Below, piece by piece: positions 10,190 through 52,506 of a stretch of DNA of 64,000 nucleotides; within the stretch, counting starts at the first letter, position 1; each line of letters begins with the position of its first letter. The position numbers and the translations under genes were made by a program. Source of the stretch: Dictyostelium discoideum (lineage: Eukaryota); the NCBI GenBank assembly GCA_000004695.1, contig CM000151.3, forward strand, positions 8,032,001 to 8,096,000, written 5' to 3'. A model generated the notes under the pieces. The model worked only from the letters and a program-made list of their open reading frames with translations, made no database searches and was not told the DNA's origin.

Positions 10190-10225
<36 letters not shown>

Positions 10226-10303
10226 ATGATTAATATAATTTATGTTGAACATTCAGAAAATAGTAAAAATAAAAAAAATAAAAATAAAAAAACTTACCTG
10301 ACA
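7644..10303 (-). CDS. RCC1-repeat plus double BTB-domain protein (RCBTB-like). Structure is complement(join(7644..10186,10297..10303)), 849 aa, with a 7-nt first exon ATGTCAG.
   Basis: Repeated YSWG...GQLG RCC1 blades. Two BTB-like blocks (ADLIFKVQDKKIYSHSLFIKSRC and ISFKIKESDTSSIYAHKFIL). The track M at 10055 is a TTG. The frame stays open upstream to an acceptor tttattag at 10187-88. The upstream exon ATGTCAG then gtaagt lies at 10303-10291. Confidence 0.7.
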
Positions 10304-11017
10304 TTTTATTATTTTTATTTTAATATTATATTTATATTTATGTTTATATGTTTTTTATTTGTTTTGATAATTTTTAATAAATTTTTTTTTTTTTTTTTTT
10401 TTAACTTTATTTTTTTTTTTTGTAAAATTAAATTTAAAAAAATAAAATAAATTAAAAATTAAATTTTAGAATTCTATAGAAAGAATTTTTCCTTTTATAG
10501 TAAGTTTTTGTTTTTTTTATTTTTGTTGTTTTTATAAAAAAAAAAAGGTTTTTGTTTTATTATTATTTTTGTTTTTTTATTTTTATTTTTGTTTTTTTTT
10601 ATTATAAAAGAAAAATGGATTTGAAAATAAATATTTTAAAAAAATTAAAATTAATTTTATGAAAAAAAAAAAATATTGAGTATGAGTGAATTAATAATCA
10701 ATAATGAAAATAAAAAAAAAAAAAAAAACTAATTCGTCTTTCTTTTTAAATTAAAAAAAAAAAAATAAAAACCAATTATTTATTATTTTTTATTTTTATC
10801 TTTTTTTTATTATTTTTTTTATATCAAGTAAATTAAATTATTATACCAAGTAAATAAAATAATACCCCAATAAAATGATAAAGTTCTTCTCAATTTCAAA
10901 GAATGTACCTGTTTTTTATTGATAAAATTTGAAAAATTAAAAAAAAAAAAAATAAAATTAGAAAAAAAATATTTTTTTTAATTTTATTTTCATTTTTTTT
11001 TATTTAATTTTTTTTTT

Positions 11018-11058
<41 letters not shown>

Positions 11059-11661
11059 TAATTTTTCAAAAATTGAGATATTTATTTCGCATATGTTTTA
11101 GTAAAAATAAGCCAAAATTAGTTTTTGGGTTTTGTTGGCATTTGTTTGTTTTTTGAGTATTAATTACATTTTTTAGTTTGAATATTTTTTTATTATTATT
11201 ATTATTTTTATTTGTTATTTATTATTATTGTTATTATTATTATTTTTTTTTTTTTTTGAGTTTTTCATTTTTGTGTTGCAAAACACAAATAAAAAAACAT
11301 GTCACACACCCATTCAGTTTATAATAAAAAAAAAAAAAAAAAAAAAGAAAAAAAAAGAAAATAAAAAAAAGTGGGATTTTCATTTTTTTTTTTTTTTTTT
11401 TTTCAATCATTTATTTTTATTTTTGTCATCAACATATTAATATATAATTATTTTTAAATCTCGTTTTAATAATTCCCCACTTTTTTTGTTTTTTTTTTTT
11501 TTTGCATAATTAATTTTAATTTTTATTTTTTTTTTCTGTACATATAATTTATTAAAAAAAATAAAAATAAAAAATAAAAAATAAAAATATAAAATAAAAA
11601 AAAAAAAAAAAAAAAAAATAAAATAATATAAAATAAAAAAAAAAAAAAAAAAAAAAAAAAA

Positions 11662-13683
11662 ATGAAAGATATTTGGAAATCAGCAAGAAAAGGTGATTTA
11701 GCAAAGATTAAAAAGTATATACCAGGCACAAAATTTAAAGTTGATGAATTAGATAAAGAGAATAGATCAATTCTTCATCATGCGATTGATGGTGACCAAT
11801 TACAAATGGTAAATTATTTATTAGAACAAGGTGCAAATATAAATTTAAAAGATCCTAAATCTGGTGATACTGTATGTATTTAATAATTATAAATAAATAA
11901 AATATATTATTATTATTTTTTTTTTTTTCTAATAGAAAAACATATGTTAATTATTAATTATTATTTTTTATTTATAATTTAGCCAATTTTAATGTCATTA
12001 AAAAAAATTAATGCAATTGATAAACAAGAAGATATTGCAATTTTATTAGTTAATAAAGGTGCAGATTTAGATGTTGAATCAAGAGAGAGAAAGAATGTTG
12101 AAAGATATGTTGATGCATGTCCAAAACGTTTTCAAATAAAGTATAAAGATGCAATTACACAAAAGTTTAAAAATAAATATCCACCAAAGGCAATTGCACC
12201 AGCAAGTCCAGCTACTCAAGTTCTTTTAGCGCAAACTGCAGGTTTACCACCACCTTCACCAAAACCAAATCCACCACCACCACAACAGCAAGAAAACACT
12301 GCTACATCATCAATTATATCAACTGTCGAACCAAGACCATATGTAAATTCAAATGGTGAAACAGTTGTAAGATCAACTAATGAAATGGATTTAATTTTAC
12401 AAGAATCATTGTTAGGTGATGATTTTGATAAAGAACAAGATTTGAATATAATTTGGATGGAAGTTGCATTTAGAGCATCAATCGTTTCCATTAGGTCTGA
12501 GAAAGTTAGATATGACGATATCACCAAAGCCACCGATCAATGTGGTAATATTTTAATACATTTGCTATCAATCATTGGTAATTCAGAGACAACATCGTTC
12601 ATGGAGACTGTAAAGAATCAAGAAGCTGTAAACTCAATTCAAGAACGTGTTAAAAACGTTAAGGAGGGTATCAAACTCCGACTGTTCTCTAGAATTGATC
12701 ATTCTGAATTAATTAGATTAGTTGCAGCTTTAATTGGTTCATTACATTGGATTTACAATTGCTGGTCAGAGGTCCCACAAGACGATATCAATAGATCAAT
12801 TGCCGAATGTGCCTTGTCATGTCGTGTTGCAATGAATTCAGTTACAACTCATACACCATTCCAGTTGGGTGTTTTAACAAATATTGCAAAACTTTTAAAA
12901 AATATTTCAACTAAAGTTTTCATTACTCGTACTCCAGAGGATGCAAAGAAGTTATCAGATTCTTGTTTTGTTATCTCTTCAACTTTTAAATCATTAATGG
13001 TTCTATCGGTAGTGAATGATGTCAAACAAAAATCAGCTGAAAATATCATCTCATTAGGTCGTTCAATCGCCGAACAATTATCAATATTAAAATTACAATC
13101 AACTTCAATCTTACCTTCAAGAGTTGGTCAAAATTTATCATCAAAAGAAGAACGTGAGTTAAATGAATCTGCTTCAAATCAATTACGTTCATCAATTGAT
13201 TATTATATTTCAAATAATAAATCTGATACAACTACTACTACTACAACTACAACTACAACTACAAATAGTGAGAATAATAATATTACAGATTTAATTTCAT
13301 CACCAAAAAGATTACCAAAAGAAGATAAAACATTACCATTATTAGCAAATATTGAAAAATCAATTTCAATGTTAATGGGATTTACAACTGAAGATAGAAA
13401 TATTCAAATGGCAATTCCAGTTCATATGATTGCAAAGGATATTCATGAACTTAGAACTATATTATTAGAATACATTAAAGAACAATCTGATAGTTTATCT
13501 GAAGAATTTAAAGATCAAATTACAAATGCTATCAATTGTTCTGCTCATTTTTCAACTCAACAATTATTCTCTGTATCTGCTTTAATTTGTCATAATAGAA
13601 TTACTGATATCTCACAATTAGGTTATTCTTCTCGTAATATTGCTGCTTGTTGTTGTATTTTAATTGATTCATTCTGTTTTTAA
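11662..13683 (+). CDS. Ankyrin-repeat protein with Pro-rich and poly-Thr segments. Structure is join(11662..11871,11983..13683), 636 aa.
   Basis: ANK motifs: SILHHAIDGDQLQMVNYLLEQGANIN and TPILMSLKKINAIDKQEDIAILLVNKGADLD. Exon 1 ends in phase 0 before GTATGT. The 111-nt intron ends at ag (11981-82). Exon 2 is in frame with the 11992 ORF. Confidence 0.7.
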
Positions 13684-13818
13684 AAAATAAATAAATAATA
13701 AATAAATAATAAATAAATAATAAATAAATAAATAAATAAAATTTGTAAAATAAAATATTAATTTATAATAAAATAAATCAATTTATTTTTTCCCTGAAAG
13801 TAAAATAAAATTAATTAA

Positions 13819-13896: not shown

Positions 13897-15222
13897 GAAA
13901 TTATTAAAATTATTAATATTAAAATTATTCTTTAAATTTTTTGATAGTGATAAAAATGTTAATGAAATTGGTAATTTAATTTTTAATAAATTTTCAATTG
14001 AATAATTATTATTTAATATTAAATGAGTTAATGTTGATGGTAATATATTATCTTGATCAAATGGTTGATTAAAATTTATATTTTCTAAAAGGTTAAATAT
14101 TTTTAAACCATTTGGTAATATGTTTGTATCAATTTTTGAATTGAAATAACCAATGATTGAAAATTCAATTAAACTTGTTAAACATTGTAATAATGAACCA
14201 ATATAATAATTTAAATTTAAATTTAATCTTTTACATGTGAATTCAATCAAGTCAAATGCAATTTCAAATTTTTTAATTGAATTACTTGGTGATAGTATAG
14301 ATGGAGTTAATGGTATTTGTAAATCATAAATTTGTAAATTCTCAACTGTTGATGGTATTGAATTTGGTAGAAATTTCATATCTTTTGAATAACATTCTAA
14401 ATTTATTAATGATGGTGGTAGTGATTCATGAGTAATTTCTAATTTATTAGTATTATTATTTTCATTTTCATTTTCATTAATATAATACATCATAGTTAAT
14501 GATTTTACATTTATTGGTATAACATTTTTAACAAGTTTATTACATTTTAAAATCACTTCTAAATTAATTATTGAATTTGGTAATACTGAAATATCAAAAC
14601 CTTCTCTGTAACTATTTAATACTAAATTTTTAATACCATTTGGTATATCACCAATTTTTAAAATTGAATCACCATTATTCCACTCATTTATAAATGTTAT
14701 TGATTCTAATGTACTTGGAAATTTAATTGTATCTTTTGAAATTTTTGGACATTTTAAAAATGTTATTTCTTTAATATTATTTGGAATTAAATAATCATTA
14801 CCTTTACTATAATCAGTTTCATTAATTACAACATTTTTAACTGACTTAATTGTTGATGGTAATAGGAAAAGAGGAGTTGTGGAAACGAGTATGTTATTAT
14901 TAAATGTTAAACTAATTCCAAATTCAATTATTTCAACTCCAAATGGTATTAAACAACTTGCAATATTTGAAATTGATTGTTCTTTAAATACTATTTTATT
15001 TAATACACCATTTTTATTATTTGGTAAAAAACACTTTTCATTTATTGATTCATTACCTTTATATATTAATGTTCTAATATATTCCTTATTTTCATATTCA
15101 ATTAATGATGTTAAATTTAAAAATGTTACAATTTCATTTTTTTCATATAATAATTTAAACTCTAAAATCATTTTTAACAAATAAACATTTCTCCAAACCT
15201 TAAAAAATAATTTATCTTTCAT
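13819..15222 (-). CDS. FNIP-repeat (Dictyostelium-type LRR-like) protein with a poly-Asn tail, 467 aa
   Basis: Tandem roughly 22-aa repeats with the LP(N/P)SL..L.F...FNQP pattern, for example FNINNFNN and FNQPFDQDNILPSTLTHLILNNNYSIENL. N-terminus is MKDKLFFKVWRNVYLLKMI. Confidence 0.65.
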
Positions 15223-15663
15223 TATTTGATTTTTTTTTTTAAGAATTTCAAAAGGAAGAGTTTGAAAAATTCATTATCGATTTCACAAATAATAAAATTT
15301 CAGTCCAATTTTTACAATTAAAATTTTTTATTTATTATTTTTCAATTTTTAGATTAGAGGTAATAAAAATAAAATAAAATAAAATAAAAAAAAAATTAAA
15401 ATTAAAATTAAAAAAAAAAAACAAGATATTTTCATTGGTTAAAAAAAAAAAATATCTTTTTTATTAAAAAAAAAAAAAAAACATTCCAACTACATTCTTA
15501 AAAATAATAATTTTATTTTTTTAAATATTTCCAATTCTAAATCTATTTTATTTCTATTATTATTTTTTTTATTTTATTTTTTATAAGTATAAAATGTAAA
15601 TTTTTTTTTTTTTTTTCCAATCAATTCAACAAACTTTAAACTAATCAATACAATAAATTAAAA

Positions 15664-16590
15664 ATGCCTCTCGCTTTAACTTCAAGGTAAAAAAAAAAAA
15701 AAAAAAAAAATTATAATTCATTTAGTGGTTAATAATTTAAAATTACTAATTTAAATTAAATTTATTTAATTTATAGAAAATCATTAAAAGATAATGAAGA
15801 ATCTTTAAAAACTAATTTAGCATCAATTGAAAAATCATTGGGTGAACCATTTTCAATTGAATTTGATTTTGAAGATATTATTACTAAATGTAATGATTCA
15901 TGGGTTACTAATAGTTGTGGAAGTATCTTTTATAAAGATGTAGTTGGTAATCTTGCAAAGAATATGGTAAAAGTCGGTGCAGATTCATTAATTAAAGAAG
16001 CATTTTTAGCAGCTGTTCCAAATAAGAAATTTGTTTTTGTTTGTGCTGATGAAAAGTTGGAATCCTATTGGAAATATCAATTTGAGAATGGTGATTGTAG
16101 AATTTTATTCCGTCCAAAGATTTGTAACACTAATGATGTTAACACATTCAAATTAGAGACAATCATTCCATCTCAAGGTGTTTATACTTTAATGACTCGT
16201 TTAAATATTAAAACAAATGAACAAAAAATGAAAGATAATTTATCAGCAGTTAAAAAAGCATTAAAATCATCATCAGATTGGTCAATTGATGAATTATCAT
16301 TAGAAACTGTTTATCCAAAAGTTGCCGACGACTTAAAGAATAGCTTTGGTCATATCTTTGCTGGTATCGTCGAAAAGGTCGCTGCAAATCTCGCCAAACG
16401 TTGTGCTGATGAAATGATCTTAGAAGCAGTTCAAGAAGCAACTACAAATCATACAATCGTTATTAAACATGATGCTAACTTGAACGCTCATTGGTCATGG
16501 TCATTTGAATCTGGTAATATCGTTATCACTTTCAAATCTGTAACCAATACTAACGATGTTCAAACATTTGATTTCATTAAATTATTATAA
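15664..16590 (+). CDS. 278-aa two-domain paralog, copy 3. Structure is join(15664..15686,15777..16590).
   Basis: ATGCCTCTCGCTTTAACTTCAAG followed by gtaaaa. The intron ends ttatag at 15776. Exon 2 is in frame with track ORF 15838..16590. It has a unique DELSLETV variant. Confidence 0.8.
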
Positions 16591-17275
16591 ATAAATAAAA
16601 AAAGCTATTAATATTATTAAACACATTGTTAAGAAATAAAAAAGAAATTAAAAAGTATTAAAAGGTGATTGTTTGTTGATTTTTTATTTGTTTATTTATT
16701 GTTTATCATTTAAAAATTAATTTAGTGTTTTAAATTATCAATTTCTATTCATATCTTTTTTTTTTTTCTCATTTAACTGAATGGATGGAATTGTTATTAT
16801 TTTTCAAATTTATTTTTTAAAGTCTTTTTTTATTTTTAATAAACTTCGATATGTTAAACTATTTTTTATTTTAAACCGTTTAATACAAATAATTATAATA
16901 AATAATTGAAATATATAACAAAATAAATTAAAATTAAAGATTAAATTCTATTGTCAATTTTTTAAAAAGAGTGTATAATAATAAAAAAAATAGTATAGAT
17001 AAAATATTAAGTAGATATGTGATTATCTATTTTTTTTTTTTTTTCATTTGGAAATTTAGACAATTCAAACACTATGTTATTCATACATCAAAAATTAAGA
17101 TATTATTTTAGTTTTATTTTTTATTTTTTTTTATTTTTTATTTTTTTTAACGATACCCCTATAAAAAAAAAAAAAAAATAAAAAAAAAAAAAATAAGATA
17201 TTTTTAAAAAAAAAAAAAAAATAAAAAAAAACAAGTCCAGATATTTTTTTTTAAAAAAAAAAAAAAAAAATCATT

Positions 17276-17345
17276 CCAATTACATTCTTGAAATTAATAA
17301 TTTTATTTTTTATCTAATATTTTTAAATATTTCTGGATTTTTAAT
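17276..17345 (+). promoter_or_regulatory. Conserved upstream promoter block CATTCCAATTACATTCTT(A/G)AAATTAAT ... TAAATATTTCTGGATTTTTAATC, about 125-195 nt before the ATG. Shown here for copy 4. Equivalent blocks lie near 15484, 19006, 3361-3433 and 5240-5318.
   Basis: Non-AT-only islands are conserved in sequence and in spacing from the ATG in all five copies. The surrounding spacer is homopolymer-rich and more divergent. Confidence 0.4.
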
Positions 17346-17468
17346 CTATTTTTTTTCTATTTTTATAAGTATAAAAATGTAAATATTTTTTTTTTTATTA
17401 TTATCAAATAATTCAAAACAAAAACCTTAAACTAATAATATTTAAATATTAATAAAAAAACATTTAAA

Positions 17469-17496
17469 ATGCCTCTCGCCTTAACCTCAAGGTAAG

Positions 17497-17527
<31 letters not shown>

Positions 17528-18399
17528 GCTTCATTTAATAATTAATATAAATTTTAATTAATAATTTAATTTATTTTATTTTTAGAAAATCATTAAAAGA
17601 TAATGAAGAATCTTTAAAAACTAATTTAGCATCAATTGAAAAATCATTGGGTGAACCATTTTCAATTGAATTTGATTTTGAAGATATTATTACTAAATGT
17701 AACGATTCATGGGTTACTAATAGTTGTGGAAGTATCTTTTATAAAGATGTAGTTGGTAATCTTGCAAAGAATATGGTAAAAGTCGGTGCAGATTCATTAA
17801 TTAAAGAAGCATTTTTAGCAGCTGTTCCAAATAAGAAATTCGTTTTTGTTTGTGCTGATGAAAAGTTGGAATCCTATTGGAAATATCAATTTGAGAATGG
17901 TGATTGTAGAATTTTATTCCGTCCAAAGATTTGTAACACAAATGATGTTAACACATTCAAATTAGAAACAATCATTCCATCTCAAGGTGTTTATACTTTA
18001 ATGACTCGTTTAAATATTAAAACAAATGAACAAAAAATGAAAGATAATTTATCAGCAGTTAAAAAAGCATTAAAATCATCATCAGATTGGTCAATTGATG
18101 AATCATCATTAGAAACTGTTTATCCAAAAGTTGCTGACGACTTAAAGAATAGTTTTGGTCATATCTTTGCTGGTATCGTCGAAAAGGTCGCTGCAAATCT
18201 CGCCAAACGTTGTGCTGATGAAATGATCTTAGAAGCAGTTCAAGAAGCAACTACAAATCATACAATCGTAATTAAACATGATGCTAACTTGAATGCTCAT
18301 TGGTCATGGTCATTTGAATCTGGTAATATCGTTATCACTTTCAAATCTGTAACCAATACTAACGATGTTCAAACATTTGATTTCATTAAATTATTATAA
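17469..18399 (+). CDS. 278-aa two-domain paralog, copy 4. Structure is join(17469..17491,17586..18399).
   Basis: Same structure as the other copies. The intron runs 17492..17585 (GTAAGA...tttag). Confidence 0.8.
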
Positions 18400-19192
18400 A
18401 TAAACAAAAAAAGCTATTAATAATTAAAACACATTGTTAAAAAATAAAGAATAAATTAAGTATAAAAAGGTGATTGTTTGTTGATTTTTTTTTATTTGTT
18501 TTTTATTGTTCAAAGTCTTTTTTTTTAATAATAATCGATATGTTAAACTATTTTTTATTTTAAACTCCTTTAAATACAAATAATAAAAATAAATAATTTT
18601 ATCCAAAAAAAAAAAAGAAAAAAAAATGAATTATAATTCATTGTGTAACAAAATAAATTAAAATTAAAAATAATATCTTATTATTATATTTTAAAAAAGA
18701 GTGTATAATAGATAAAAAACTAAAAAAAGTATTGATAAAATATTAAGTAGATTATCTTTTTTTTTTTTTTTTTTTTTTTCTTTTTGAAATTAAGATAATT
18801 CAAACACTATTTATTCATTACATCAAGTATTATAAAGAATTAAAAGATATCATTATATTTTTCTTTTTTTTTTTTTTTAACGATACCCCTATCCAAAAAA
18901 AAATAAAAAATAAAAAAAAAAAAACAAAAAAAAATAAAAAATAAAAAAAAAATAATATAAAAACCAAAATCCAGATATTTTTTATAAAAAAAAATCATTC
19001 CAATTACATTCTTAAAATTAATTATTTTATTTGTTATTTAATATTTTTAAATATTTCTGGATTTTTAATCTATTTTTTTTCTATTTTTATAAGTATAAAA
19101 TGGAAATTTTTTTTTTTTTAATTATCAAATAATTCAAAACAAAACAAACTAATAAATAATATTTTAATAATAATAAAAAAAAAACTCTTAAA

Positions 19193-20121
19193 ATGCCTCT
19201 CGCCTTAACCTCAAGGTAAAAATAAATAATAAAAATAAAAATAATAATAATATTTCATATAAAAATTAATAAAAATTTATTAATAAATAAATTTATTTTA
19301 TTTTTAGAAAATCATTAAAAGATAATGAAGAATCTTTAAAAACTAATTTAGCATCAATCGAAAAATCATTGGGTGAACCATTTTCAATTGAATTTGATTT
19401 TGAAGATATTATTACTAAATGTAACGATTCATGGGTTACTAATAGTTGTGGAAGTATCTTTTACAAAGATGTAGTTGGTAATCTTGCAAAGAATATGGTA
19501 AAAGTCGGTGCAGATCCATTAATTAAAGAAGCATTTTTAGCAGCTGTTCCAAATAAGAAATTTGTTTTTGTTTGTGCTGACGAAAAGTTGGAATCCTATT
19601 GGAAATATCAATTTGAGAATGGTGATTGTAGAATTTTATTCCGTCCAAAGATTTGTAACACAAATGATGTTAACACATTCAAATTAGAAACAATCATTCC
19701 AACTCAAGGTGTTTATACTTTAATGACTCGTTTAAATATTAAAACAAACGAACAAAAAATGAAAGATAATTTATCAGCAGTTAAAAAAGCATTAAAATCA
19801 TCATCAGATTGGTCAATTGATGAATCATCATTAGAAACTGTTTATCCAAAAGTTGCAGATGATTTAAAGAATAGTTTTGGTCATATCTTTGCTGGTATCG
19901 TCGAAAAGGTAGCTGCTAATCTCGCCAAACGTTGTGCTGATGAAATGATCTTAGAAGCAGTTCAAGAAGCAACTACAAATCATACAATCGTCATTAAACA
20001 TGATGCTAACTTGAACGCTCATTGGTCATGGTCATTTGAATCTGGTAATATCGTTATCACTTTCAAATCTGTAACCAATACTAACGATGTTCAAACATTT
20101 GATTTCATTAAATTATTATAA
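19193..20121 (+). CDS. 278-aa two-domain paralog, copy 5. Structure is join(19193..19215,19308..20121).
   Basis: Same structure as the other copies. It carries the outer-copy variants ADPLIKEAF and IIPTQGVY, which it shares with copy 1. Confidence 0.8.
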
Positions 20122-20228
20122 ATAAACAAATAAACAATAAAACATTTTAAAAAACGAGTAATAATAAAATATGTTCAAATCTTTCGAAAGATTTTAATTT
20201 TTTTGACATTATTTATTTGGTTTGATTC

Positions 20229-20263
<35 letters not shown>

Positions 20264-20659
20264 TGCACTTTTATCTATAAAAATAAAATTATACATTACA
20301 TAATTTACCTTTTTCTAATCAAAATATAATTTATTTTTTAATTATTGGTCTGTGAAAATAAGCAGATTTTTTTTTTCCCAACTGTAGTGAAAATTTTCAG
20401 CAGTGCAGGGAAAAAAGGGAGTTTAATACCTGATGGCAGTAATGGGTTAATTGGCAATTGTCTATCAATTGTTTCATTTGGAAATTGCAGGACTGATAAA
20501 ATAAAAAAATAAAAATTGTATATTAACTTTAAAACGTAAAGATATTTAATATACAATATAAATATTTTAAAAAATCAATAAAATAAAAATAATTTATTTA
20601 TTTTCTTTTTCTAAATATATATATAAAAGTATTTTTAACTATTGTTATTATTATTATTA

Positions 20660-28701
<8,042 letters not shown>

Positions 28702-29385
28702 TTTTTTTTTTTTTTTTTTTTTTTTTTTATCTATCTCTTCTTTTTATTTTTTTTTTTTTTGTTTTTTATTTTTTTATTTTTTTTTTTTTTTTAATTTTGT
28801 TTTGTTTTGTTTTAATTATTTGTTATGTTGATTATTAATTTAAAAGTTGTGGAAAAAATGTAGTAAATTTAAATTTAAAATAAAAATAAAAAAAATAAAA
28901 AAATTAAAAAAATAAAAAAAATAAAAAAAATTATGTGTAATGTGTGATGTAGAAAAAAAAAAAAAAAAAAAAAAAAAAGTGTAAAAAATTATATATATAT
29001 ATTATTTATCAAATAAAATAAAAAATAAAATAAAATAAAATTAAAATTAAAATAAAAATAAAATAAAAAAAAAAAATAGAAAAAAAAAAAAAAAGTTTTT
29101 CAACAACGTCAAACACAATGAAATTATAAAGTTTTATTAATATTAAAAAAAAAATAGTTATATATGTGCGTGTATGTGTGTGTGAGTGTGAATGTATTTG
29201 TGTGAAAGACGAGAAAAGTATAAAAAAAAAATAAAAAAATAAAAAATAAAAAATAAAAAATAAAAAAAAAATAAAAAAAATATAAAAAAAAACAAAAAAA
29301 AAAAAATTTTTGTTAACTGATAATGTAATTATTTCTTTTTTTTTTTTTTTTTTTTATTATGTGAAATTCCCAGTTCAATTACTCG

Positions 29386-29422
<37 letters not shown>

Positions 29423-29827
29423 ATCCGAAGATATTTATAACATTTGTGGTTTTTCAATAAATACCCAACCAATTCATTGTTTTTTTGTGGAAAGCAAGTT
29501 TAAAAAAAAAAAAAGAATATTCTATAAAAAAAATATAAAAAGATCTTTTTATCTTTTTTTCTGATCAATAATTTTATTTTTAGAATTTAATTATTTACCA
29601 TTCATTTTTTGTGATTGGTTTTTTTTTTTTAATTTTGAAGAATGATGGGTAGTTAATAAATTTTAAATAGATTGGTTTGATCAAATTGTTGTTTATTTAT
29701 ATTCATTTTTTTTTAAAAAAAAAAGATAAATTTGTGAACAGAATAAAAAATTAAAATTAAATAGTTATTACCTTTTTTTTATTTTTATTTTTATATATTT
29801 TTTTTAATTTTTGGGTGATCTGGATTA

Positions 29828-29858
<31 letters not shown>

Positions 29859-30322
29859 GGGATTTATAAGAAAAAATAAAAAAAATATTCCAAAGCAATT
29901 TTTTTTATTTTTTTTAAGAAAACTCAAAAATACACAAAATCATATAAAATATAAAAAATATTAATGTAATTATATATAAAATATGATCTGTTTTTTTTTT
30001 TTTTTTTTTTTTTTTCTAATCAAAAATTTTATTTACATATATATTTTTTTTTATTTTAATGTTTTTATCAATAAAGTTTCAGAAAAGAAATATAACAAAT
30101 TATTTTGACCAAAAAAAAAATAAAAAAAATAAAAAAAATAAAAAATAAAAAAAAATAAAAAAAAAGAAATTCTTAGTAGTAAAAAAATTATATTCCACCA
30201 AAAATAAATTAATTCGGCCTTTAATTAAAAATTAAAAGTTAATTAAAAAAATAGAAAAAAATAATAAAAAACCTTACAAATCACAAGGTTGTGTTAAATC
30301 AAAAACTCGTTTAAAACTGTTT

Positions 30323-30359
<37 letters not shown>

Positions 30360-30562
30360 TTTTATATAAAAAAAATAAAATAAAAAAAAAAAAATTCAAT
30401 TCCTAATTTTAGTTATTTCGAAACTTTACAACTTTGAGTCTCCAAAAAATCAAACAATCATGAAAAGCTATTTATTCATATATGGTAAATTTATTAATAT
30501 GATGTTGGCGGTTATTTTTCAAAGAACATGATTTTTTTTTGTAATATATTATTTTTTTTTTA

Positions 30563-30609
<47 letters not shown>

Positions 30610-31350
30610 GGGCCCACTATTTTTTATAATAAAATTATTGAATACTATCAAAAAAAATTAAATAGATAGGTCAAAAACAAAAAAAATTAAAAAAAAAAAA
30701 ATTAAAAATAATTAAAAATAATAGTATCCAATTTTAGGATATTTTTTATAAAAAAAAGGATATTTCAAAAAAAAAAAAAAAAAAAAATCCTTCAAATTCT
30801 CCCCCATCATTATTGAGATACACGCACCTTTTAATTTTTTTTTTTTATTTTTTTTTTTTTTTTTATTTTTCAAGAATTTAGAATTGTTTTTTTTTTATTC
30901 ATTTTTTTTTATGAAAAAGGTATTCACAAAAGACAATATGAATTGGGAGCGGAGAGAATAATTGTAAGCATTGGAAATGAATCTTAACTGGATGTGAAAA
31001 AAAAAAAAATAAAAGAAAAAAAAAAAAAAATGATCACATTTGAACAAAAACAATTTTCATCATTTTCATTTTCATTTTTTTTTTTTTTTTTTTTTTAATA
31101 TTTTGTATTTCCTAAAGTGTTGTACATTTATAAATTGTTATTTTTTTTTTTATTTTTATTTTTTTTGTTGGCACGTGCGAGAAGTTTTTACCTTTTAATC
31201 TATCTCAACTTTTTTTTTTTTTTTTTTTTTCTTCAAACACTCATATACAATTAATAACCTACAAATTTTTTTTTTATATACTTTTTATAAACAATTACAA
31301 TAAAATCACCAACAGCCATTATTGCCAATTTATCACTTATTGTTTTGTTC

Positions 31351-31384
<34 letters not shown>

Positions 31385-31744
31385 AAAAAAAATAAAAAAA
31401 ATAAAAACCCTTAATCTTTTTTTTTTTTTTTTTTTTTTTTCCAATTTTTTTTTTTTTTTTTATTTTATTTAAATAAAAGAAATTCTATTACATTTACCAC
31501 CCTCATAACCACTCCCCCAACACCACCTTCAAGAAAAAAAAAAATAAAATAAAAAAAATAAATAAATAAAAAAGTGTATTAAAAATTCAAATATTTAAAA
31601 AGAAAGAAAGAAAAAAAAATAAAAAATAAAAAATAAAAAAAAATAACTGTACATTCACATATTAATATTCATTACCCGCCATTTGCTTGTGTTATTGTAA
31701 TTTATTATAAAAACACTATCAACTTAACATTGGCAGTGCCTAAT

Positions 31745-31802
<58 letters not shown>

Positions 31803-33279
31803 AATTTTTAAATATTTTATTAATTGTATGTTTCAAAAAATATTTATTGAAAAAAAAAGGAAAAAACAAATAAAAATAAAATTTAAAAAAATAAAATAAG
31901 TGGGAGAGAAAGAAAAGAGAACAAAAATAAACACCAAAAAAAAAAAAAAAAAAAAAAAAAACCTCTTTTCAATTAATTGGATTTTTATGCATTTCTACAT
32001 ATGTACCCTTTCAAAGTGTAAGTTATTTATAATAATTACCATTAAAAAAAATTTGACTGATAAAAATTAATATATATTTTTTTTTTTTTTGGTTAAATTT
32101 TAATTTTAATTTAATAAATAATAATGGAACATCGAAAATCAAAAGAGTAAATTTTTGAATTTTTGAATTATTTAATATTTATTTTTATTTTTATTTATTT
32201 TTTTTTTTCCTTTAATTTTTTTTCCTTTGTTTTTATGTATATTTACAAAAAAAAAAATATTAATAAAAAAAAAAAAGAAAAAAAAACCATTGATTAAAGA
32301 AATAGATAAATTATTATAATTATTATTTGATTGTATTGTATTATATTGATTATTGTTAAATAAGTACATACAATCACCAACATACACACAAAAAAAAAAA
32401 AAAAAAAAAAAAACCAACTCCACCACTTCAAAGGGGTACTAACCACTAAGCATACTGAGAAATAGAGAGAGAAATAGAGAGAAAAAGAGATACACACACA
32501 AACAACATAGATACTCACTCACACACACACACACGTTGACACACACTCACTCGCTCTCATATTATTTTTTCATTTAATAAAAACAGATACTCTCCCGTAC
32601 ACACGGACACACTCGCACACACACATTTTTATTTTTTAATAAAATTGAAAAAATATACATGTTCTCCTTTTCATTTCATATTTGTAAAAATTATTATTAT
32701 TATCATTATTATCATTATTATCATTATTAATTTTTATTTAAATAAATACATCCACCACCTATATAATTTATATAATTTTAGTATGAAATTATTCCAATAA
32801 TATTTTTTTTTTATTTATAGCTGATTGTAGAAGAGATGATATCAAAAATAGAAACAAACAAACAATAAAAAATAGTAATTTTTTTTTTTTTTTATTTTTG
32901 GTTTTTATTATTTTTTAATTATTATTTAAATTATTATTTTTTTTATTTATTTTTTTCTTTTTTTAATTAAAATAATTTTTTTAATTTTTTTAATCAAATA
33001 CTAATTTATCTATTATATAAACTTTTTTTTTTTTTTTTTTTATTATTTGACATTCATTTAATTTAATCCAGTTTTTTTAAAATCTTGTTATAAATTAAAC
33101 CTTTTTTTTTGAAATAAAAAAAAAATAAAAAAAAAAAAAAGTTAAAATTTGTAAGTAATAGAATTTTTTTCATTTATTTATAATTTTTTTATAATTTTTT
33201 TTTTTTTTTTATTTATTATTAAAAAATAATAAATTTCATGTTCAAAATCTATTTATGTAATTAAAATTATAATTTTCAT

Positions 33280-33316
<37 letters not shown>

Positions 33317-33687
33317 TTTGATTTGTAAGTTAAATTATTGTTGGTAACAAAAATTATATATCCTTATTTTCAAAAAAATTAAAAAAAAAAAAAAAAAAAA
33401 AATTATTATTTTTTCCAATCCCATAAAATAGTGATTTAATATAATATATGATCAATATTTTTTTTCATTATTGATAAAATCTCAAAAAAAAATTAATAAT
33501 TTGTAAAAGATTTAAAGATTAATTTGGCGATACATCAACATCATTAAAATAATAAATCAATAAAAAAAAAAATTAAAAAATCAAAAAAAAAAAAAATTAA
33601 AATAATGATAATTTGGGAACAAAAATTGACAGCCAGAGATCATTTCAAGTGTTGGTTTTTTTTTTATTTTTATTTTTTTGGGTTTAT

Positions 33688-33727
<40 letters not shown>

Positions 33728-34557
33728 TGTTAGCTACATTGAATTTTGGTTTTATGTGCTTTTGGTGGTATTTAAAAAATAAAAAAAAAAAAAAGGATAA
33801 TTTAATATGGTGAGTGTGGTGGTGTGTTAAAGTTGTTTGTGGTAATGTGTGCTTTTTGTGTGTGAGTGTGTGTGTGTGAGATATAGTGTGTATTATTTTT
33901 TTATTTTTATTATTTTTTAATTTATTTTTTTTTTATTTTTTTTTTGAATGTAATTACATATTTGTTTTTTTGTTGTTTCAAAATTGCCTTTTTATTATTT
34001 TTATTATTATTTTTTTAAAAAAAAACCAAAAAAATAACAGCTAAAAAAAAATACCAAAAACATATAATTTTTATTTTTATTTTTATTTTTTTTTTTTTTT
34101 ATTTTCCACTTTTTTATTATTATCATTATTTTTATTATTATAATTATTAAATTTGCAAACTATATTTTCTAAAGTTCACCATAAAAAATAAAATAAAAAA
34201 CATCCAAATCCTTTCAAAATACAACAATTTTCAAAAATTTTTTTCATTATTCCAAAAACATTTTTGATTTAATTATTAATATATTTTTATTTTATTTATT
34301 TTTTTTTTTTTTTAAATTTTATAATTATTTTTTTTTTATTTTTTTTTTAAAAAAAAATAAAAATTGTAAATTTGTAAAACTTAAAGTAGTTTAAAGTAGT
34401 CTCATTTAATTTTATTTTCTTTAAAAAAAAAAAAAAAAAAAAAAATAATTCCTAACTTTTTTTTTTTTATTATTTCTTAAATCCCATTTTTCCAAAAGTA
34501 AAAAAAATTTTCCAATATTTTTTTTTTTAAAATAAATTATACAAAAAAAAAAAAAAA

Positions 34558-36726
<2,169 letters not shown>

Positions 36727-36733
<7 letters not shown>

Positions 36734-38878: not shown

Positions 38879-39307
38879 AAAACTTATAAATTATAAAAAA
38901 TAAAAATAAAAAATAATAATAATAATATAAAATATCAAGAGTTTAATATTTTTTTTATCAATCTCTTCAATGTACATATTTTCATTTTAAATTTATTGAA
39001 ATTTTAAAATTGGTTTAGATTTAAAAATTATTAAAGATTCATCAATTAAAAAAAAAAAAAAATAAAAAAAAAAAAAATAAAAAATAATATTATTAAAAAA
39101 AAAAAAATAAAAAAAAAATAAAAAAAAAAATAGGATTGATTTTAATCAATGTATTTTTATTTTATTGATTTGTAATTTCCATTAAAAAAGTTTCAACTGG
39201 ACGAGATAATTTACAATAGTCATGACAATAATCAGAGATAATTCTTGGATTTGTTAAAGAGGAATAATTTGAATTATTTGAACTATATTCAACATTTGTA
39301 GTTAAAT

Positions 39308-40669
39308 TTAATTGTTGAATATAGGTTGCACCATTATTTTACTGAATGCATTTCTATTGAAAACATTATCATGTTTTGCACCATTATAAGGTATCCATAA
39401 ACCTTCACAATAGAATTCTATTTGACTATGACAACCACAATCGGATATTGTAAAACCATCATCATCATCGGTATTTTCTAGTTTTCTAAATGATTTCTCA
39501 TGAATACTTCTACCACTAATATAACGAGTTGGTATATTATTATAACGAGTGATTGATGAAAAGAATGTACTAAAACTTCAAATCCGGTTTCCATAGATTT
39601 CAGTGCTTTTTGAGTACCAAATTTTACATTATAAACCATATGTTTCTTTATAAATAATGAAACTCTATAACAAAAACATAAAATTGATTCTTTTGTACCA
39701 TCATCGAATCTAATTGGTTCCAATTGATATTTTCTAATGAATTCTTGAAATTCAACTGAATCATGGTTACATAATTCGTCAGGTTTTGTATAAATAAATA
39801 TTTCTTGTTCTGAAATTGGTGTATATTCAACCTCTTCATCGTCATCATCATCAACTTCTTCCAATGCATTTGAATACATTTCAGCTTCAGTAATATGATA
39901 TACTGAAAAATTAAAACTATCATTATTATTATAATTTGATAAAATTGGTGGATTTGAATAATAAATTTTATAACATGGATATAAATTTGTAAGAATTTCA
40001 TTTGAATCGATTATTCTATTTGTTGATTCACAATGTAAATAAAATTTACTTGATGTAATATGTTGAGTTTGTATTGATTGTGGTTTATGCATATAAATAA
40101 TAAATTTGTTTAGTTGATTTAAATCTGGTTGATGGATGATTTTATTTTTTTTGATGTTTTTGTTTTCAAATGTCCATGTTTTCTTTACAGTATATCTAAT
40201 TGAAAATTTATAATTTCTATTAACTTTAAATCTTCTATTACACATTCTCTTGTGAGTTTCATGGTCATTCATTAATTCATCTATTGTTGGAATTTCTTTT
40301 GGTAATTTATATATCACTCTTTTTATATCTATAATATGAATTAACTGGAAATTGTGATACAATATCTCTTCCAACAATATTTGTAATTTGCATATTATTA
40401 TACATTAATTTTGAATATGTTAAATAAATAGGTTGTTTTTCTTTTTTTTCTTTTTTTTCTTTTTGTTGTTGTTGTTGTTGTGGATGTGGGTGTGGTTGTG
40501 ATGAATAGGTTGCTTTATTTTTTACAGTATATGAATAAGATGGAGGTGGTGAGTAAATTGGTGAGGATGAAACTGATAATGATTTTAATTTTTTAGTTAG
40601 TAATGATGTTTCTTGTTGTCGTTGGTGTTGTGATTGGGTTTCAATATTTGCCAATTGTTTTGGTAGTTT

Positions 40670-40722
<53 letters not shown>

Positions 40723-40807
40723 CTTGTTGTTGTTGTTCTTGTTGTTGTTGTTCTTGTTCACTTTGATAAGATTTTGATAAATTATTTAAAAAACTATTAT
40801 CATCCAA
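39308..40807 (-). pseudogene. Poly-Q-containing gene of unknown function, disrupted by two single-nucleotide homopolymer frameshifts. Either a pseudogene or assembly errors.
   Basis: Three consecutive open frames: 40807-40307 (MDDNSFLNNL...poly-Q...YRYKKSDI*), 40377-39478 (..VIYKLPKEIPTIDELMNDHETHKRM...GTQKALKSMETGFEV...), and a third to 39308 (..SITRYNNIPTRYISGRSIHEKSFRKLENTDDDDGFTISDCGCHSQIEFYCEGLWIPYNGAKHDNVFNRNAFSK..). The frame changes coincide with a T5 run at 40311-40315 and an A4 run at 39558-39561. No GT..AG intron of plausible size explains them. Confidence 0.45.
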
Positions 40808-41989
40808 ATAAATTTCTAAATATAATAATGTTGTTAATTAAGAGGTCTGTCTAACGAAAAAATCATTTAATTTAATTTTATTACAATACCTTTAATCTTG
40901 TCACAATAATTTGAAACTGATTCATTTAATCTTGATGAGTTTTCATATAAATTATTAAACTCTTTTTTTAATAGTACATAATTTGGATCCATTATAAGTT
41001 TTTTTTTTAAAGTGGGTCTGAAAATTGACACATGATTTTTTTTTTCCAATCTTTCTACTATTTTAAAAAAAAAAAAAAAAAAAAAACTTAGAACGATTTT
41101 TATTTTTTATTTATAATTAAAAGATATATTCCCTCTCGTTGTTCCTCAAAATAAAAAAACCAATTACAAAAAATGGATGGTAAATAAAATTTTAAAATTA
41201 AAATTTTTGATAAAAAAAAAAAAAAAAAAAAAGAATGGTTTTAAAAAATTTTTTTTTAATTCTTTTTTTAATTCTTTTATTTTTTTAAAAACTTATATTA
41301 AGGAACATCAAAAAAAAAAAAAAAAAGTTAAAAAACAATTTTAATGCTTTTTTTTTAAAAAAATAAAAAAAAAAAATTAAAAAAAGAATTTTCTTTCTCA
41401 AAATAAATTCTTATTAATTAAATTAGTTATGTTTTTTTTTTTTATTGGATTGTTTGATTAGATTTTTTTTTTTTTTTTTACATTTGAATAATTTGATGCA
41501 TGTGGGTATTTTTTATTTACATTTTCTATTGGGAAATTATTTATTTGATTTGTAATATCATTCAACTGAACATTAAAAAAAAAAAAAAAAAAAAAATGAA
41601 AATAATACTTTAGTTTATCAATAAAAAAAATAAATAAAACTTCAATAAAAATAAAAATAAAAAATAAAAATATAAAATAAAAAAAAACATACTTTTTTTT
41701 TATATCTAATATCACTTTGGCGTCTCTATTTTTGTATACTTAATTCATATTAAAATCATTGTTAAAAAAAAAAAAAAAATCAAAAAAAATCAAGAAAAAT
41801 CAAAAAAATAAAATGAAAAAAAATAATACTTTAGTTTATCAATAAAAAAAATTAATTTATTAAATAATACAACATTAACCAATAAAAACAAAAAAAACAT
41901 ACAATTTTTTTTCTTTAGTTTTATTTTTTTTTATTTTTTTTTTTTTTTATTTTTTTTTTTTTTACTTAAACCTGGGAGATGACCAAAAA

Positions 41990-43570
41990 AGGAAAAAAAC
42001 AATTAATTTAAAAAAAAACCGTATTATGAGCATAGTGCAATATAAAGTTGCAGAATAGCTAAAATTCTATTTGACCAAAAATTTTGGAAACGATATGAGG
42101 TGTTAATTTAATTTTATTATCCCTATTTTTTAATTTTGGAGATTTGTTTTTCTATTTTTTTTAATTAATAAAAAAATAAAAAAAAAATATATAACAAACT
42201 TTTACCCGTAGTAGGCCGCTGACCGCTAGCTGGTGGTAGATGGTCCTTTTCAAACTCATGTTGGGAATTATAAAAATATAAAAAAAAAATATAAAAACCA
42301 AAAAGATTTTTTTTTTTTTTTTTTTTTTAATACAATTAATATGGCCCTTAATTTAATTTTATTTTCCCTATTAGGAGATTTAATTTTTCTAATAAAAAAA
42401 ATTTTAAAAAAAAATATAATAAATCAAACCTATGTTTCGGAATTATAAAAATAAAAAAAAAATAAAAACTAAATTGATTATTTTTTTTTTTTTAACTAAT
42501 TTCTATTTAAAAGGTTTTTTTTTTTTTTATTTTTTGGATTATTATTTATTTTAACTTATATATATATAGAATAAATAATACTTTTAATTAATTAGATGGA
42601 TAAAATTAAAAATAATAATGAAAGTAATAATTTTAAATATTGTAAAGATTATAATATAAAAGAATTATTATTAAAAAGATTAAAATTAGATATCAACACA
42701 AAAATTCAAACTTTGGATGATATCTCAAAAATTCTTATTGTGTTTTCAAGGAAAATACCCTTTGATAGTTCTGATTTATTATTAAATGGATTTAAACCAC
42801 CTTTTTCAGTTGAAAATATTATAAAAAGAGTTTTAATTGATAAATTTGGTAATTATTATTATATAATTATTGTTTTTTAATTGTTTTCTAACTTTTTAAT
42901 TTAAAAAATTTAAAGGTAGTTATTGTATAAATTTAAATATTTTATTTGGATTATTTTTATGTGAAATGGGTATTGATGTTAAATTGATAAAAGGTATTGA
43001 AGGATCAACTTTATTCCAAAATCCATGGTTTCAAAAACATCATAGTAATATTATAAATTGGGAGAATAAATTATATTACCTTGATGTTGGATTTGGTTGT
43101 ATTACACCATTTAAACCACTTGAATTATTAAATGAAGAAACCATTAAAAATTATAATGAAAATGAAAATAAAAATGAAATTACTAATACTGTATATAGAG
43201 TTAGAAAATTAAAAAATGATGATGATAATGATGAATATTTATATGAAGAAAAAATAATTGATAAAACAAAACCTCAAAATCAATTATTTAGTCCAGTTTT
43301 TCATTTTAATTTATCACCTGCGACATATGAAATAATTGAATACAGTATTGAACAATATTCAAAATTTGATGTTGATAAAGTACTTTTATTTAAATTATTT
43401 AAAAAAGGAGGTTACCATTTATTTAAAGATAAACTAATAATTAGTTATTATGATGACAAAAATAACAATCAAATTAAAGAAATTAATGATAATATTACAT
43501 TTAATAATTATTATAAAACATTATTTTATAAAAAAAATAAAAATATTTTTATAAAAATTTATTAATTTAA
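41990..43570. repeat. Tandem duplication unit 1 of the NAT locus. It includes two copies of a roughly 150-nt upstream element.
   Basis: The element ttaatttaattttattttccctattaggagatttgtttttctaat....atgtttcggaattataaa occurs at about 42090-42310 (with a GC-rich 50-nt insert) and at 42340-42480. It occurs once more at 44280-44440 in unit 2. Confidence 0.6.
42596..43565 (+). CDS. Arylamine N-acetyltransferase (NAT) family protein, copy 1. Structure is join(42596..42848,42916..43565), 300 aa.
   Basis: Exon 1 ends DKFG in phase 1 before GTAATT. A 67-nt intron follows. Exon 2 begins GSYCINLNILFGLFLCEMGIDVKL, the NAT catalytic-Cys region (RGG-x-C-x-x-N), and continues with the WENKLYYLDVGFG block. 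Confidence 0.65.
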
Positions 43571-44149: not shown

Positions 44150-45560
44150 ATATAAAAGTAAAGGGAACCTGTGACCAAAAAAGAAAATTACATTATTAAG
44201 AGAAAACGACTTGTATTATGAGCATTAAGTATAAGAAAGCTAAAAATTTTATTTTGACCAAAAATTTTTTTTTTAATTCCCAAAAACAATATGGTGTGTT
44301 AATTAAATTTTATTTTCCCTATTAGGAGATTTGTTTTTTCTAATATAAAAAATTTTAAAAAAAATAACAAATCAAACTTATGTTTCGGAATTATAAATAT
44401 AAAAATAAAAAAATAAAAACCAAATTGATTTTTTTTTTTTTTTTTTTTTTAATAACTAATTTCTATTTAGGTTTTTTTTTTTTTTTTTTTTTTTTGGATG
44501 ATTATTTATTTTAACTTATATATATAGAATAAATAATACTTTTAATTAATTAGATGGATAAAATTAAAAATAATAATGAAAGTAATAATTTTAAATATTG
44601 TAAAGATTATAATATAAAAGAATTATTATTAAAAAGATTAAAATTAGATATCAACACAAAAATTCAAACTTTGGATGATATCTCAAAAATTCATATTGTA
44701 TTTTCAAGGAAAATACCCTTTGATAATTCTGATTTATTAATAAATGGATTTAAACCACCTTTTTCAGTTGAAAATATTATAAAAAGAGTTTTAATTGATA
44801 AATTTGGTAATTATTATTATTAAATTACTATTTTTTTAAAAAAGTAAACAATTATTTTCTAAATTTTAATTTAAAAAAAAATAAAAAAATAAAATAAAAT
44901 TAAAAGGTAGTTATTGTACAAATTTAAATATTTTATTTGGATTATTTTTATGTGAAATGGGTATTGATGTTAGATTGATAAAAGGTATTGAAGGATCAAC
45001 ATTATTAAAAAGTCCATGGTTTCACAACCATTTTAGTAATATTATATATTGGGAGAATAAATTATATTACCTTGATGTTGGATTTGGTTGTATTACACCA
45101 TTTAAACCACTTGAATTATTAAATGAAGAAACTATTAAAAATTATAATGAAAATGAAAATAAAAATGAAATTAATAAAACTGTATATAGAGTTAGAAAAT
45201 TAAAAAATGATGATGATGATGATGAATATTTATATGAAGAAAAATTTATTGATAAAATCAAACCTCAAAATCCATTATTTAGTCCAGTTTTTCATTTTAA
45301 TTTATCACCTGTTACATATGAAATAATTGAATATAGAGTTGAACCATATTCAAAATTTGATGTTGATAAAGTAATTTTAATTAAATTATTTAAAAAAGGA
45401 AGTTACCATTTATTTAAAGATAAACTAATAATTGATTATTATGATAATAATAAAAATCAAATTAAAGAAATTAACGATAATATTACATTTAATAATTATT
45501 ATAAAACATTATTTTATAAAAAAAATAAAAGTATTTTTATAAAAATTTATTAATTTAATT
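44150..45560. repeat. Tandem duplication unit 2 of the NAT locus
   Basis: Collinear with unit 1: upstream element, two-exon NAT gene, then the shared 3' flank ttaatttaattaaaattacaaatat. Confidence 0.6.
44554..45553 (+). CDS. Arylamine N-acetyltransferase family protein, copy 2 (tandem paralog). Structure is join(44554..44806,44907..45553), 299 aa.
   Basis: About 90 percent identical to copy 1 at the protein level. Same intron position (44807..44906). Confidence 0.65.
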
Positions 45561-52398: not shown

Positions 52399-52435
52399 TC
52401 GATCCCTTGACCCAAAGTTTTATTTTTAAAAAAAG

Positions 52436-52506
52436 TGCCGCGACCTGGAATCGAACCAGGGTCAACAGAGCCACAATCTGATGTACTACCACTATACTAT
52501 CACGGC
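52436..52506 (-). tRNA. tRNA-His (GTG)
   Basis: The minus-strand sequence is GCCGTGATAGTATAGTGGTAGTACATCAGATTGTGGCTCTGTTGACCCTGGTTCGATTCCAGGTCGCGGCA. Acceptor stem GCCGTGA/TCGCGGC. D-loop AGTGGTAG. Anticodon loop TTGTGGC with CAGA/TCTG stem. B-box GGTTCGATTCC. Confidence 0.85.

Follow-up and report, generated by a model that had tools for sequence, protein, structure and literature searches.

We analysed a 64,000-nucleotide (nt) window of Dictyostelium discoideum chromosome 2 (chr2), with a focus on the long non-coding spacer in front of the cyclin gene cycD. Positions are given in the window; adding 8,032,000 converts them to coordinates on chr2 of the AX4 genome. The spacer (28702–34557; chr2 8060702–8066557; 5,856 nt) separates two divergent genes. 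On its left, the ATG of DDB_G0277419 lies at 28701 on the minus strand (AX4 chr2 8052660–8060701), and the product of this gene has an ATG2/VPS13-like N-terminus. On its right, cycD (DDB_G0277439) begins with the ATG at 34558 on the plus strand. It occupies 34558–36733 in two exons (34558–36397 and 36489–36733) and encodes a protein of 694 amino acids (aa) with a Cyclin_N domain. NUBP1 is encoded just downstream of the cyclin gene.

The identity of the locus was established through the AX4 gene coordinates. DDB_G0277439 is recorded at chr2 8066558–8068733 on the plus strand (File S6, PMC5295588), and its 2,176 nt equal the span of the cyclin gene in the window exactly. In AX4 coordinates the gap between DDB_G0277419 and DDB_G0277439 is 5,856 nt, a base-exact match to the spacer. 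The offset was checked with two more genes, DDB_G0277513 (39478–40272) and DDB_G0277515 (45667–47208), both of which fall base-exactly on open reading frames (ORFs) of the window. The name cycD is taken from the literature; the solved-structure chains nearest to the protein are those of cyclin B1 and A2 and are uninformative on its subtype. In the supplement of Strasser et al. (2012), cycD is marked 'mid + late devel' and 'cold-activated'. Its expression shows a sharp developmental peak shortly ahead of the RblA-repressed cell-cycle genes, and cold shock induces it 7.5-fold (PMC3386910).

The original prediction had described a long gene-free spacer carrying islands of odd composition, and every feature that it quoted was recovered in place. 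The longest ORF anywhere in the 5,856 nt encodes 84 aa, and with a crude ORF mask the spacer is the longest non-coding gap of the 64-kb window, the second measuring ~2.7 kb. Compared with the mean intergenic length of ~700 bp in D. discoideum (PMC5295588), it is about eight times longer.

Islands and conserved blocks of the spacer

A 40-nt composition scan placed all non-coding CA-rich and GT-rich islands of the 64 kb inside the spacer (29165–29204, 31496–31548, 32490–32535 and 33808–33894), while elsewhere such composition occurs only within coding repeats. The proposed CA/GA-rich island at 32380–32640 and the GT-rich islands at 33806–33900 and 29161–29210 are all present. They are not plain CA/GT microsatellites, which would be head-to-tail dinucleotide arrays. 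No period-2 CA or GT array was found by Tandem Repeats Finder at a score of at least 40, and the sole repeat in an island is GAGAAATAGAGA, present in 2.8 copies at 32457–32490.

Orthologous loci were fetched via the cyclin protein and NUBP1; a protein search with the ATG2-like N-terminus gave no match. The same gene order surrounds the spacer in D. firmibasis (4,783 nt; CM069768.1 4,059,834–4,064,616), D. citrinum (5,175 nt), D. dimigraforme (4,745 nt) and D. cf. discoideum (5,885 nt), and the aligned spacers run colinear across species. The four-species alignment referred to below comprises D. discoideum, D. citrinum, D. dimigraforme and D. firmibasis (D. cf. discoideum was left out), and identity denotes the fraction of D. 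discoideum bases that are identical in all four.

By this measure, the left part of the spacer (28702–31150) has an identity of 0.27, compared with 0.33 for the cycD intron, and has the near-neutral look of fast-evolving A/T filler, except at the distal GT-rich island. Alignment of the right 3.4 kb (~31150–34557) with the three relatives is comparable in quality to that of the cycD coding sequence; alignment of the left 2.4 kb is not. Identity is 0.44 and 0.52 in the two published transcript models described below (models 1 and 2, respectively) and 0.48 in the 820 nt between them; the values for cycD exon 1 and its cyclin-box part are 0.50 and 0.61. The cyclin proteins of D. discoideum and D. 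firmibasis are only 58% identical. In a control spacer of 1.7 kb between the Ank and RCC1 genes of the same fetched locus, only the ~0.7 kb nearest one gene could be aligned. Judged from the alignment, the constrained part of the spacer consists of the cycD-proximal 3.4 kb and one distal island (29161–29295).

Several non-repetitive blocks of the right part (32574–32709, 32741–32928, 33443–33558 and 34117–34190) are 83–96% identical to D. firmibasis. A further block (TGTGCGAG.AGTTTTTACCTTTTAATCTATCTCAAC ... CATACAATTAATAACCTACAA ... CAACAGCCAT; 31165–31330) had attracted notice for a CACGTG motif. The block is indeed present and conserved in the four-species alignment, but CACGTG itself (31173–31178) is found in D. 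discoideum only, the other species having CATGTG or AATGTG. The segment 32741–32935, at the 5' end of model 1, is 88% identical to D. firmibasis over 189 columns, with a three-way identity of 0.87 for 32816–32915. Conserved blocks also lie between the models (33443–33660; 91% over 117 columns), including GATC at 33450 and 33638, and AT-rich blocks such as ATTATTAAATTTGCAAACTATATTTTCTAAAGTTCACCATAAAAAA occupy 33940–34280, at 83–96% identity to D. firmibasis.

The islands behave differently from these blocks: their position, composition and strand polarity are retained in all four species, while their sequence mostly turns over. Described here on the plus strand, part A of the CA/GA-rich island (32380–32560; GC content 0.36) keeps its position and composition at an identity of 0.16. 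Part B, which runs into a conserved AT-rich block (AAAACAGATACTCTCCCGTACACACGGACACACTCGCAC ... AATAAAATTGAAAATATACATGTTCTCCTTTTCATTTCATATTTGTAAAAATT; 32561–32720), includes the exception to this turnover, since 32561–32640 (AAAACAGATACTCTCCCGTACACACGGACACACTCGCAC) has an identity of 0.75. The proximal GT-rich island (33806–33900) opens with ATGgtgagtgtggtg at 33808, and its stretches GTGAGTTTGGTGGTGTGT and TGTGAGATATAGTGTGTA are conserved but its middle is not. The distal GT-rich island and its conserved flank (TATTTGTGTGAAAGACGAGAAAAGTATAAAA; 29161–29295) reach 0.57. The C-rich block picked up by the composition scan (ACCACCCTCATAACCACTCCCCCAACACCACC; 31490–31530) is C-rich in the relatives too.

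The islands contain matches to the response element of the transcription factor GBF, (T/G)G(T/G)G(T/G)G(T/G), which typically occurs in closely spaced pairs (PMC2257962). The window holds 46 such heptamers, against 27.4 ± 6.3 in shuffled sequence, and 17 of them lie in the spacer, which makes up 9% of the window. They form groups of 2, 7, 2 and 5 within 60 nt, plus one isolated match at 32384; the distal GT-rich island has two, part A of the CA/GA-rich island eight and the proximal GT-rich island five. Equivalent clusters are present in the three other species. Measured from the cycD ATG, a GT-type cluster lies 544–737 nt upstream in four of four species and CA-type clusters lie ~1,800–2,170 nt upstream. 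The C-rich block with its CA-type clusters is found 2,580–2,743 nt upstream in D. citrinum, D. dimigraforme and D. firmibasis, and a distal GT-type cluster ~4,300–5,400 nt upstream in three of four species. Such turnover of the inner sequence at constant position and polarity is what binding-site clusters typically show. Because the heptamer is short and matched by any CA/GT-rich island, the test is partly circular and shows only that the islands are compatible with GBF sites. The developmental timing of cycD, with its mid-development peak, can be set beside the post-aggregative induction that characterises GBF targets. A further cluster of five GBF-type heptamers lies in A/T-rich DNA at the start of the window (294–357; ACACACACACC ... 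CCCCCCACC).

The GATA factor GtaC has a DNA-binding domain that prefers GATC. Nine GATC sites occur in the spacer, two of which (33450 and 33638) are conserved in all four species, both in the strongly conserved blocks between the transcript models. Both cycD and DDB_G0277419 appear in one two-column sheet of Supplementary Data 2 of Santhanam et al., a file of 'genes bound by GtaC and putative targets', and the spacer is the region upstream of both genes; the sheet was available without its header, which leaves its stage and its protein (wild-type or mutant) unspecified. GtaC occupancy of the spacer is likely.

More distant relatives place the spacer in context. The D. purpureum scaffold stops 805 nt upstream of the cyclin gene, and within that stretch only low-complexity alignments to the spacer were obtained; two CA-type islands, whose homology is unproven, are found on the cycD-sense strand, ~650–800 nt ahead of the cycD ATG. 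The cyclin upstream region (fetched locus 12554–13358) is cut by the scaffold end at CA-rich islands. The cyclin gene of Cavenderia fasciculata still adjoins NUBP1 and has an upstream spacer of just 196 bp; in Tieghemostelium lacteum no cyclin gene was found beside NUBP1. Given the long spacers of the close relatives and the 196 bp of C. fasciculata, the long spacer seems characteristic of the D. discoideum clade.

Two smaller features of the left part were also recorded. An (AAT)12 array at 30563–30598 corresponds to ~200 nt of (TAA)n in D. firmibasis, a rapid microsatellite change in DNA that seems unconstrained, and a palindrome with a 6-bp stem (AACCTTACAAATCACAAGGTT; 30271–30291) is kept in D. 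citrinum and not in D. firmibasis.

Transcript models and RNA structure

Two published long non-coding RNA (lncRNA) models from strand-specific RNA sequencing lie inside the spacer, among 621 such models (Rosengarten et al., 2017; PMC5295588). Both are single-exon and on the minus strand. Model 1 (CUFF_1892_1, DDB_G3974233; 31431–32935, chr2 8063431–8064935; 1,504 nt) spans the C-rich block, a mini-ORF, both CA islands and the strongly conserved block. Model 2 (CUFF_1893_1, DDB_G3970775; 33756–34380, chr2 8065756–8066380; 624 nt) spans the GT-rich island and the conserved blocks to its right, and its 5' end lies 178 nt from the cycD ATG, in divergent direction from cycD. Both are taken from Files S4 and S6 of PMC5295588. 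The original prediction had suggested that the islands may belong to an unannotated non-coding transcript, and the two models fall exactly on them.

Transcription of the spacer is therefore documented; its level is probably low. The source study accepted models from 200 nt upwards with a minimum of two raw reads at any one time point, reported 1.0 reads per kilobase per million as the median of the maximal lncRNA levels, and discarded models with a tiling path to a neighbouring gene (PMC5295588). On this low evidence threshold, both qualify as intergenic lncRNAs, being transcribed, at least 200 nt long and confined to the intergenic region. They lack coding potential: the longest ORF is 84 aa, indels between species do not come in multiples of three, and conservation is lowest in the island that carries the ORF. 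The reported Spearman correlations are −0.30 with cycD and 0.03 with DDB_G0277419 for model 1, and 0.31 and 0.08, respectively, for model 2 (PMC5295588). About 50–80 nt upstream of the modelled 5' end of model 1, a block that is nearly invariant in the four species (32985–33015; TTTTTTTAATCAAATACTAATTTATCTATTATAT) reads TATATAATAGATAAATTAG on the minus strand. This TATA-like element may serve as a minus-strand promoter, to judge from its sequence and position.

The source tables require some care. The CUFF names clash between Files S4 and S6, the model at 8063431–8064935 being CUFF_3487_1 in the former and CUFF_1892_1 in the latter; the name column of File S4 appears scrambled, and coordinates and DDB_G identifiers are preferable (PMC5295588). 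A third published lncRNA model, at 40440–40795 (chr2 8072440–8072795, minus strand), lies within a minus-strand ORF of 166 aa (40307–40807), and a D. citrinum gene model (899 aa, Transglut_core) covers the equivalent of ~39150–41000. This third model is probably a missed coding exon of DDB_G0277513 and not an lncRNA. A comparable arrangement exists on chromosome 1, where a 10.9-kb spacer (454103–464991) between DDB_G0267636 and DDB_G0267638 contains two plus-strand lncRNA models (3,058 and 1,263 nt); the GtaC gene list includes DDB_G0267638 as well. Long spacers that contain lncRNA models may represent a recurring class.

Two coding-related ideas about the spacer were not supported. For the proposed mini-exon (MHFYICTLSK; 31987–32026, plus strand), the segment with the ATG has no counterpart in D. 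firmibasis and is only partly retained in D. citrinum; the adjoining TTTCAAAGTGTAAGT and the stretch TTTCAAAGTGTAAGTT, which includes GTAAGT at 32018–32023, are conserved. The alternative of a long 5' untranslated region (5'UTR) of the cyclin-box gene finds no plus-strand model among the transcript models in the spacer; those present are all on the minus strand, opposite to the ATG and GTAAGT of the mini-exon, and run away from cycD. There remains a small possibility of a cycD upstream exon, suggested by the conserved GTAAGT at 32018 and a TATA/T-run at 32760–32830. D. purpureum has a GTAAGT ~190 nt ahead of the cyclin ATG; the A-rich stretch that comes after it ends in AG immediately before the ATG, and the whole may be a 5'UTR intron.

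Searches for a structured small RNA, whether an Rfam family, a tRNA, a microRNA hairpin or a Class I RNA, identified none. Rfam models, at gathering thresholds and at E-values up to 10, matched nothing in the spacer, including its islands, and the only hit in the window was a tRNA-His (52435–52506); the spacer contains no tRNA. An RNAalifold scan of the four species on both strands of 31151–34557 yielded no window that was both stable and structurally conserved, defined jointly as z < −2 and a structure conservation index (SCI) > 0.5. The best mean z was −2.1 (SCI 0.43), and the best SCI was 0.70 (z −1.3). An inverted-repeat search and a 120-nt fold scan were dominated by poly(A):poly(T) pairing and were uninformative. 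A Class I RNA, which would have a conserved Dictyostelium upstream sequence element (DUSE) ~60 nt upstream as its promoter, was considered and rejected, the DUSE-like TCCCATAA at 33417 being unconserved.

A candidate control region of cycD

We favour, at what amounts to an even balance of belief and doubt, a reading of the spacer as an extended, modular region that controls cycD in development and, in addition, is transcribed at a low level. The gene in front of which it lies, cycD, is nearly silent in growing cells and switched on in mid-development. Only the cycD-proximal 3.4 kb would be under selection, the remainder being filler. The CA and GT islands would act as clusters of G-box or CA-rich-element (CAE) sites of the kind bound by GBF, which may be read on either DNA strand, and the neighbouring conserved AT-rich blocks as sites for other factors; two of these blocks could present their conserved GATC cores to GtaC. 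The minus-strand lncRNAs would not be structured RNAs; they would arise as by-products of active regulatory DNA or assist it. An induced gene, conservation of primary sequence only, islands with internal turnover, and likely factor occupancy along with low transcription together give the spacer the look of a modular promoter or enhancer. The analysis demonstrates the identity of the locus, the lncRNA models, the pattern of conservation, the clustering of motifs and the lack of conserved RNA structure; we infer that GBF or GtaC acts at the spacer, and that the regulated gene is cycD rather than DDB_G0277419.

Several points weigh against this interpretation. The motif test is partly circular, and GBF is no more than a candidate regulator of cycD. 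The GtaC listing of cycD and DDB_G0277419 was used without the header of its sheet and without peak positions. Conservation is even between and under the lncRNA models, which fits a functional transcript equally. The correlation of the lncRNAs with cycD is weak, and that with DDB_G0277419 is absent. Finally, the CA/GT polarity is kept in four species, which an orientation-free DNA site would not need; this polarity may simply have been inherited, the species being close relatives.

The most serious competitor, possible though clearly less probable, is that the minus-strand lncRNAs function as RNAs, either as two units or as one ~3-kb unit split by an unmappable A/T stretch. One possibility is fine-tuning of cycD or DDB_G0277419 in cis: transcribed from the CA islands as GU-rich modules and from the GT island as a CA-rich module, these segments could bind protein or pair with one another. 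The coincidence of the models with islands and conserved blocks, a degree of conservation equal to that of the neighbouring coding exon, the conserved TATA-like element just upstream of model 1 and the conserved island polarity all speak for such a function. It is disfavoured by the filter of only two raw reads and the low median level, by the lack of conserved secondary structure, by the 820 nt between the models being equally conserved, by CA:GU pairing that stays within composition expectation in D. firmibasis and D. citrinum, and by the D. purpureum islands upstream of cycD being CA-type and not GT-type (with the homology unproven). A bolder version, which we consider rather doubtful, joins both models into one conserved functional lncRNA locus of ~3 kb (34380 to 31431) specific to the D. 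discoideum clade, whose GU-rich and CA-rich modules would time cycD induction through the RNA or the act of transcription. If true, this ~3-kb lncRNA would also time the burst of mid-development cell-cycle gene expression, and no earlier long non-coding RNA of a social amoeba would have combined sequence conservation with an assigned function. Less probable still is an assignment of the transcripts to DDB_G0277419, as 5' exons from a distal promoter or as a long 5' leader, in which case most of the spacer would belong to that gene. Both models share the strand of that gene (pattern +:-:-), A/T-rich gaps can interrupt read tiling and could mask continuity with it, and on the minus strand the conserved block at 31186–31200 reads AAAAG|GTAAAAAC, a possible splice donor. 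However, the correlations with DDB_G0277419 are close to zero, neighbour-tiled models had already been removed by the authors, and the adjoining 2.4 kb are the least conserved part of the spacer.

Two further explanations are very unlikely. The CA and GT islands had been suggested to pair as a long-range hairpin within one transcript, and in D. discoideum the duplex between 32380–32640 and 33806–33900 indeed reaches −78.7 kcal/mol (z −4.1). Dinucleotide shuffles of the islands already give −62 kcal/mol, however, and the excess, which is due to perfect (CA)n and (GT)n runs in D. discoideum, does not recur in D. firmibasis (z −1.0) and hardly does so in D. citrinum (z −1.9), so that the pairing is largely an effect of composition. 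The two islands also belong to separate transcript models, and their sequences turn over without visible compensation. As for neutral drift, in which decayed CA/GT microsatellites would sit in a long functionless spacer, it could account for the poor conservation of island part A and the neutral look of the left 2.4 kb. The original prediction had named this outcome as its own counter-scenario, with neither transcription nor conservation and with microsatellite-like islands; what was found are published transcript models, a conserved 3.4 kb and islands that are not dinucleotide arrays. The islands keep the same places and polarity in four species, are flanked by blocks of 83–96% identity that are not repetitive, and are the sole non-coding islands of their kind in 64 kb. 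On the alignment evidence, drift appears largely refuted.

The favoured control region resembles the GBF-dependent G-box/CAE promoters of cprB, cotC/SP60, pspA and the sigN genes in its G/T- or C/A-rich islands amid A/T-rich intergenic DNA, in heptamer matches grouped closely in either orientation beside conserved AT-rich elements, and in a downstream gene induced in mid-development. It differs in scale: in those promoters the sites lie within a few hundred bases, whereas the islands here are 0.7, 2.0, 3.0 and 5.4 kb distant from the ATG, and the spacer is about eightfold longer than usual. Like the long multi-promoter regions of acaA, carA, pdsA and srfA, the spacer extends for several kb upstream of its gene, with conserved modules that can be told apart, and acaA and carA are bound by GtaC in the study whose gene lists include cycD (PMC4506546). 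Unlike those regions, cycD has no documented alternative starts, and the spacer transcript models run the opposite way. With other intergenic developmental lncRNAs (PMC5295588), the two models share a single exon, no conserved ORF and a GC content above the intergenic background. That study gives coordinates and correlations only; conservation, islands and the relation to cycD are added here, and the conservation extends beyond both models. Model 2 also recalls the promoter-upstream or divergent transcripts of other eukaryotes in beginning so close to the cycD ATG and running in the opposite direction. Its correlation with cycD is only 0.31, however, and model 1 starts 1.6 kb away with a conserved TATA-like element of its own; bidirectional promoters were rejected as a general source of lncRNAs in Dictyostelium (PMC5295588).

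Published supplementary tables had already listed the lncRNA models and pointed to the likely GtaC binding, and G-box/CAE clusters have long been familiar from Dictyostelium promoters. New are the linking of these data sets to cycD, the ~3.4 kb of non-coding DNA conserved like the adjacent coding sequence, and the conserved island layout. We regard the locus as a real and fairly ordinary regulatory and lncRNA locus.

Elsewhere in the window, a two-exon gene is duplicated in tandem at 42480–43550 and 44425–45530 (ORFs 42596–42880/42966–43565 and 44554–44823/44957–45553), and both copies match a single D. citrinum region. In D. firmibasis, synteny breaks right after the DPM3 gene beside NUBP1, and its Ank and RCC1 genes (fetched locus 14769–21303) correspond to window positions 7552–13761 in D. 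discoideum, ~25 kb off and inverted.

Intergenic DNA in Dictyostelium is short, extremely A/T-rich and usually deemed unalignable. At this locus, more than 3 kb of non-coding DNA is conserved as well as the adjacent, fast-evolving cyclin gene, and phylogenetic footprinting in D. discoideum can draw on the new genomes of its close relatives D. citrinum, D. dimigraforme and D. firmibasis. For cycD, which peaks in mid-development ahead of the burst in cell-cycle gene expression, the conserved blocks and islands amount to a delimited collection of candidate control modules. The spacer also provides a concrete locus for asking whether lncRNA models in Dictyostelium signify function or just active regulatory DNA.

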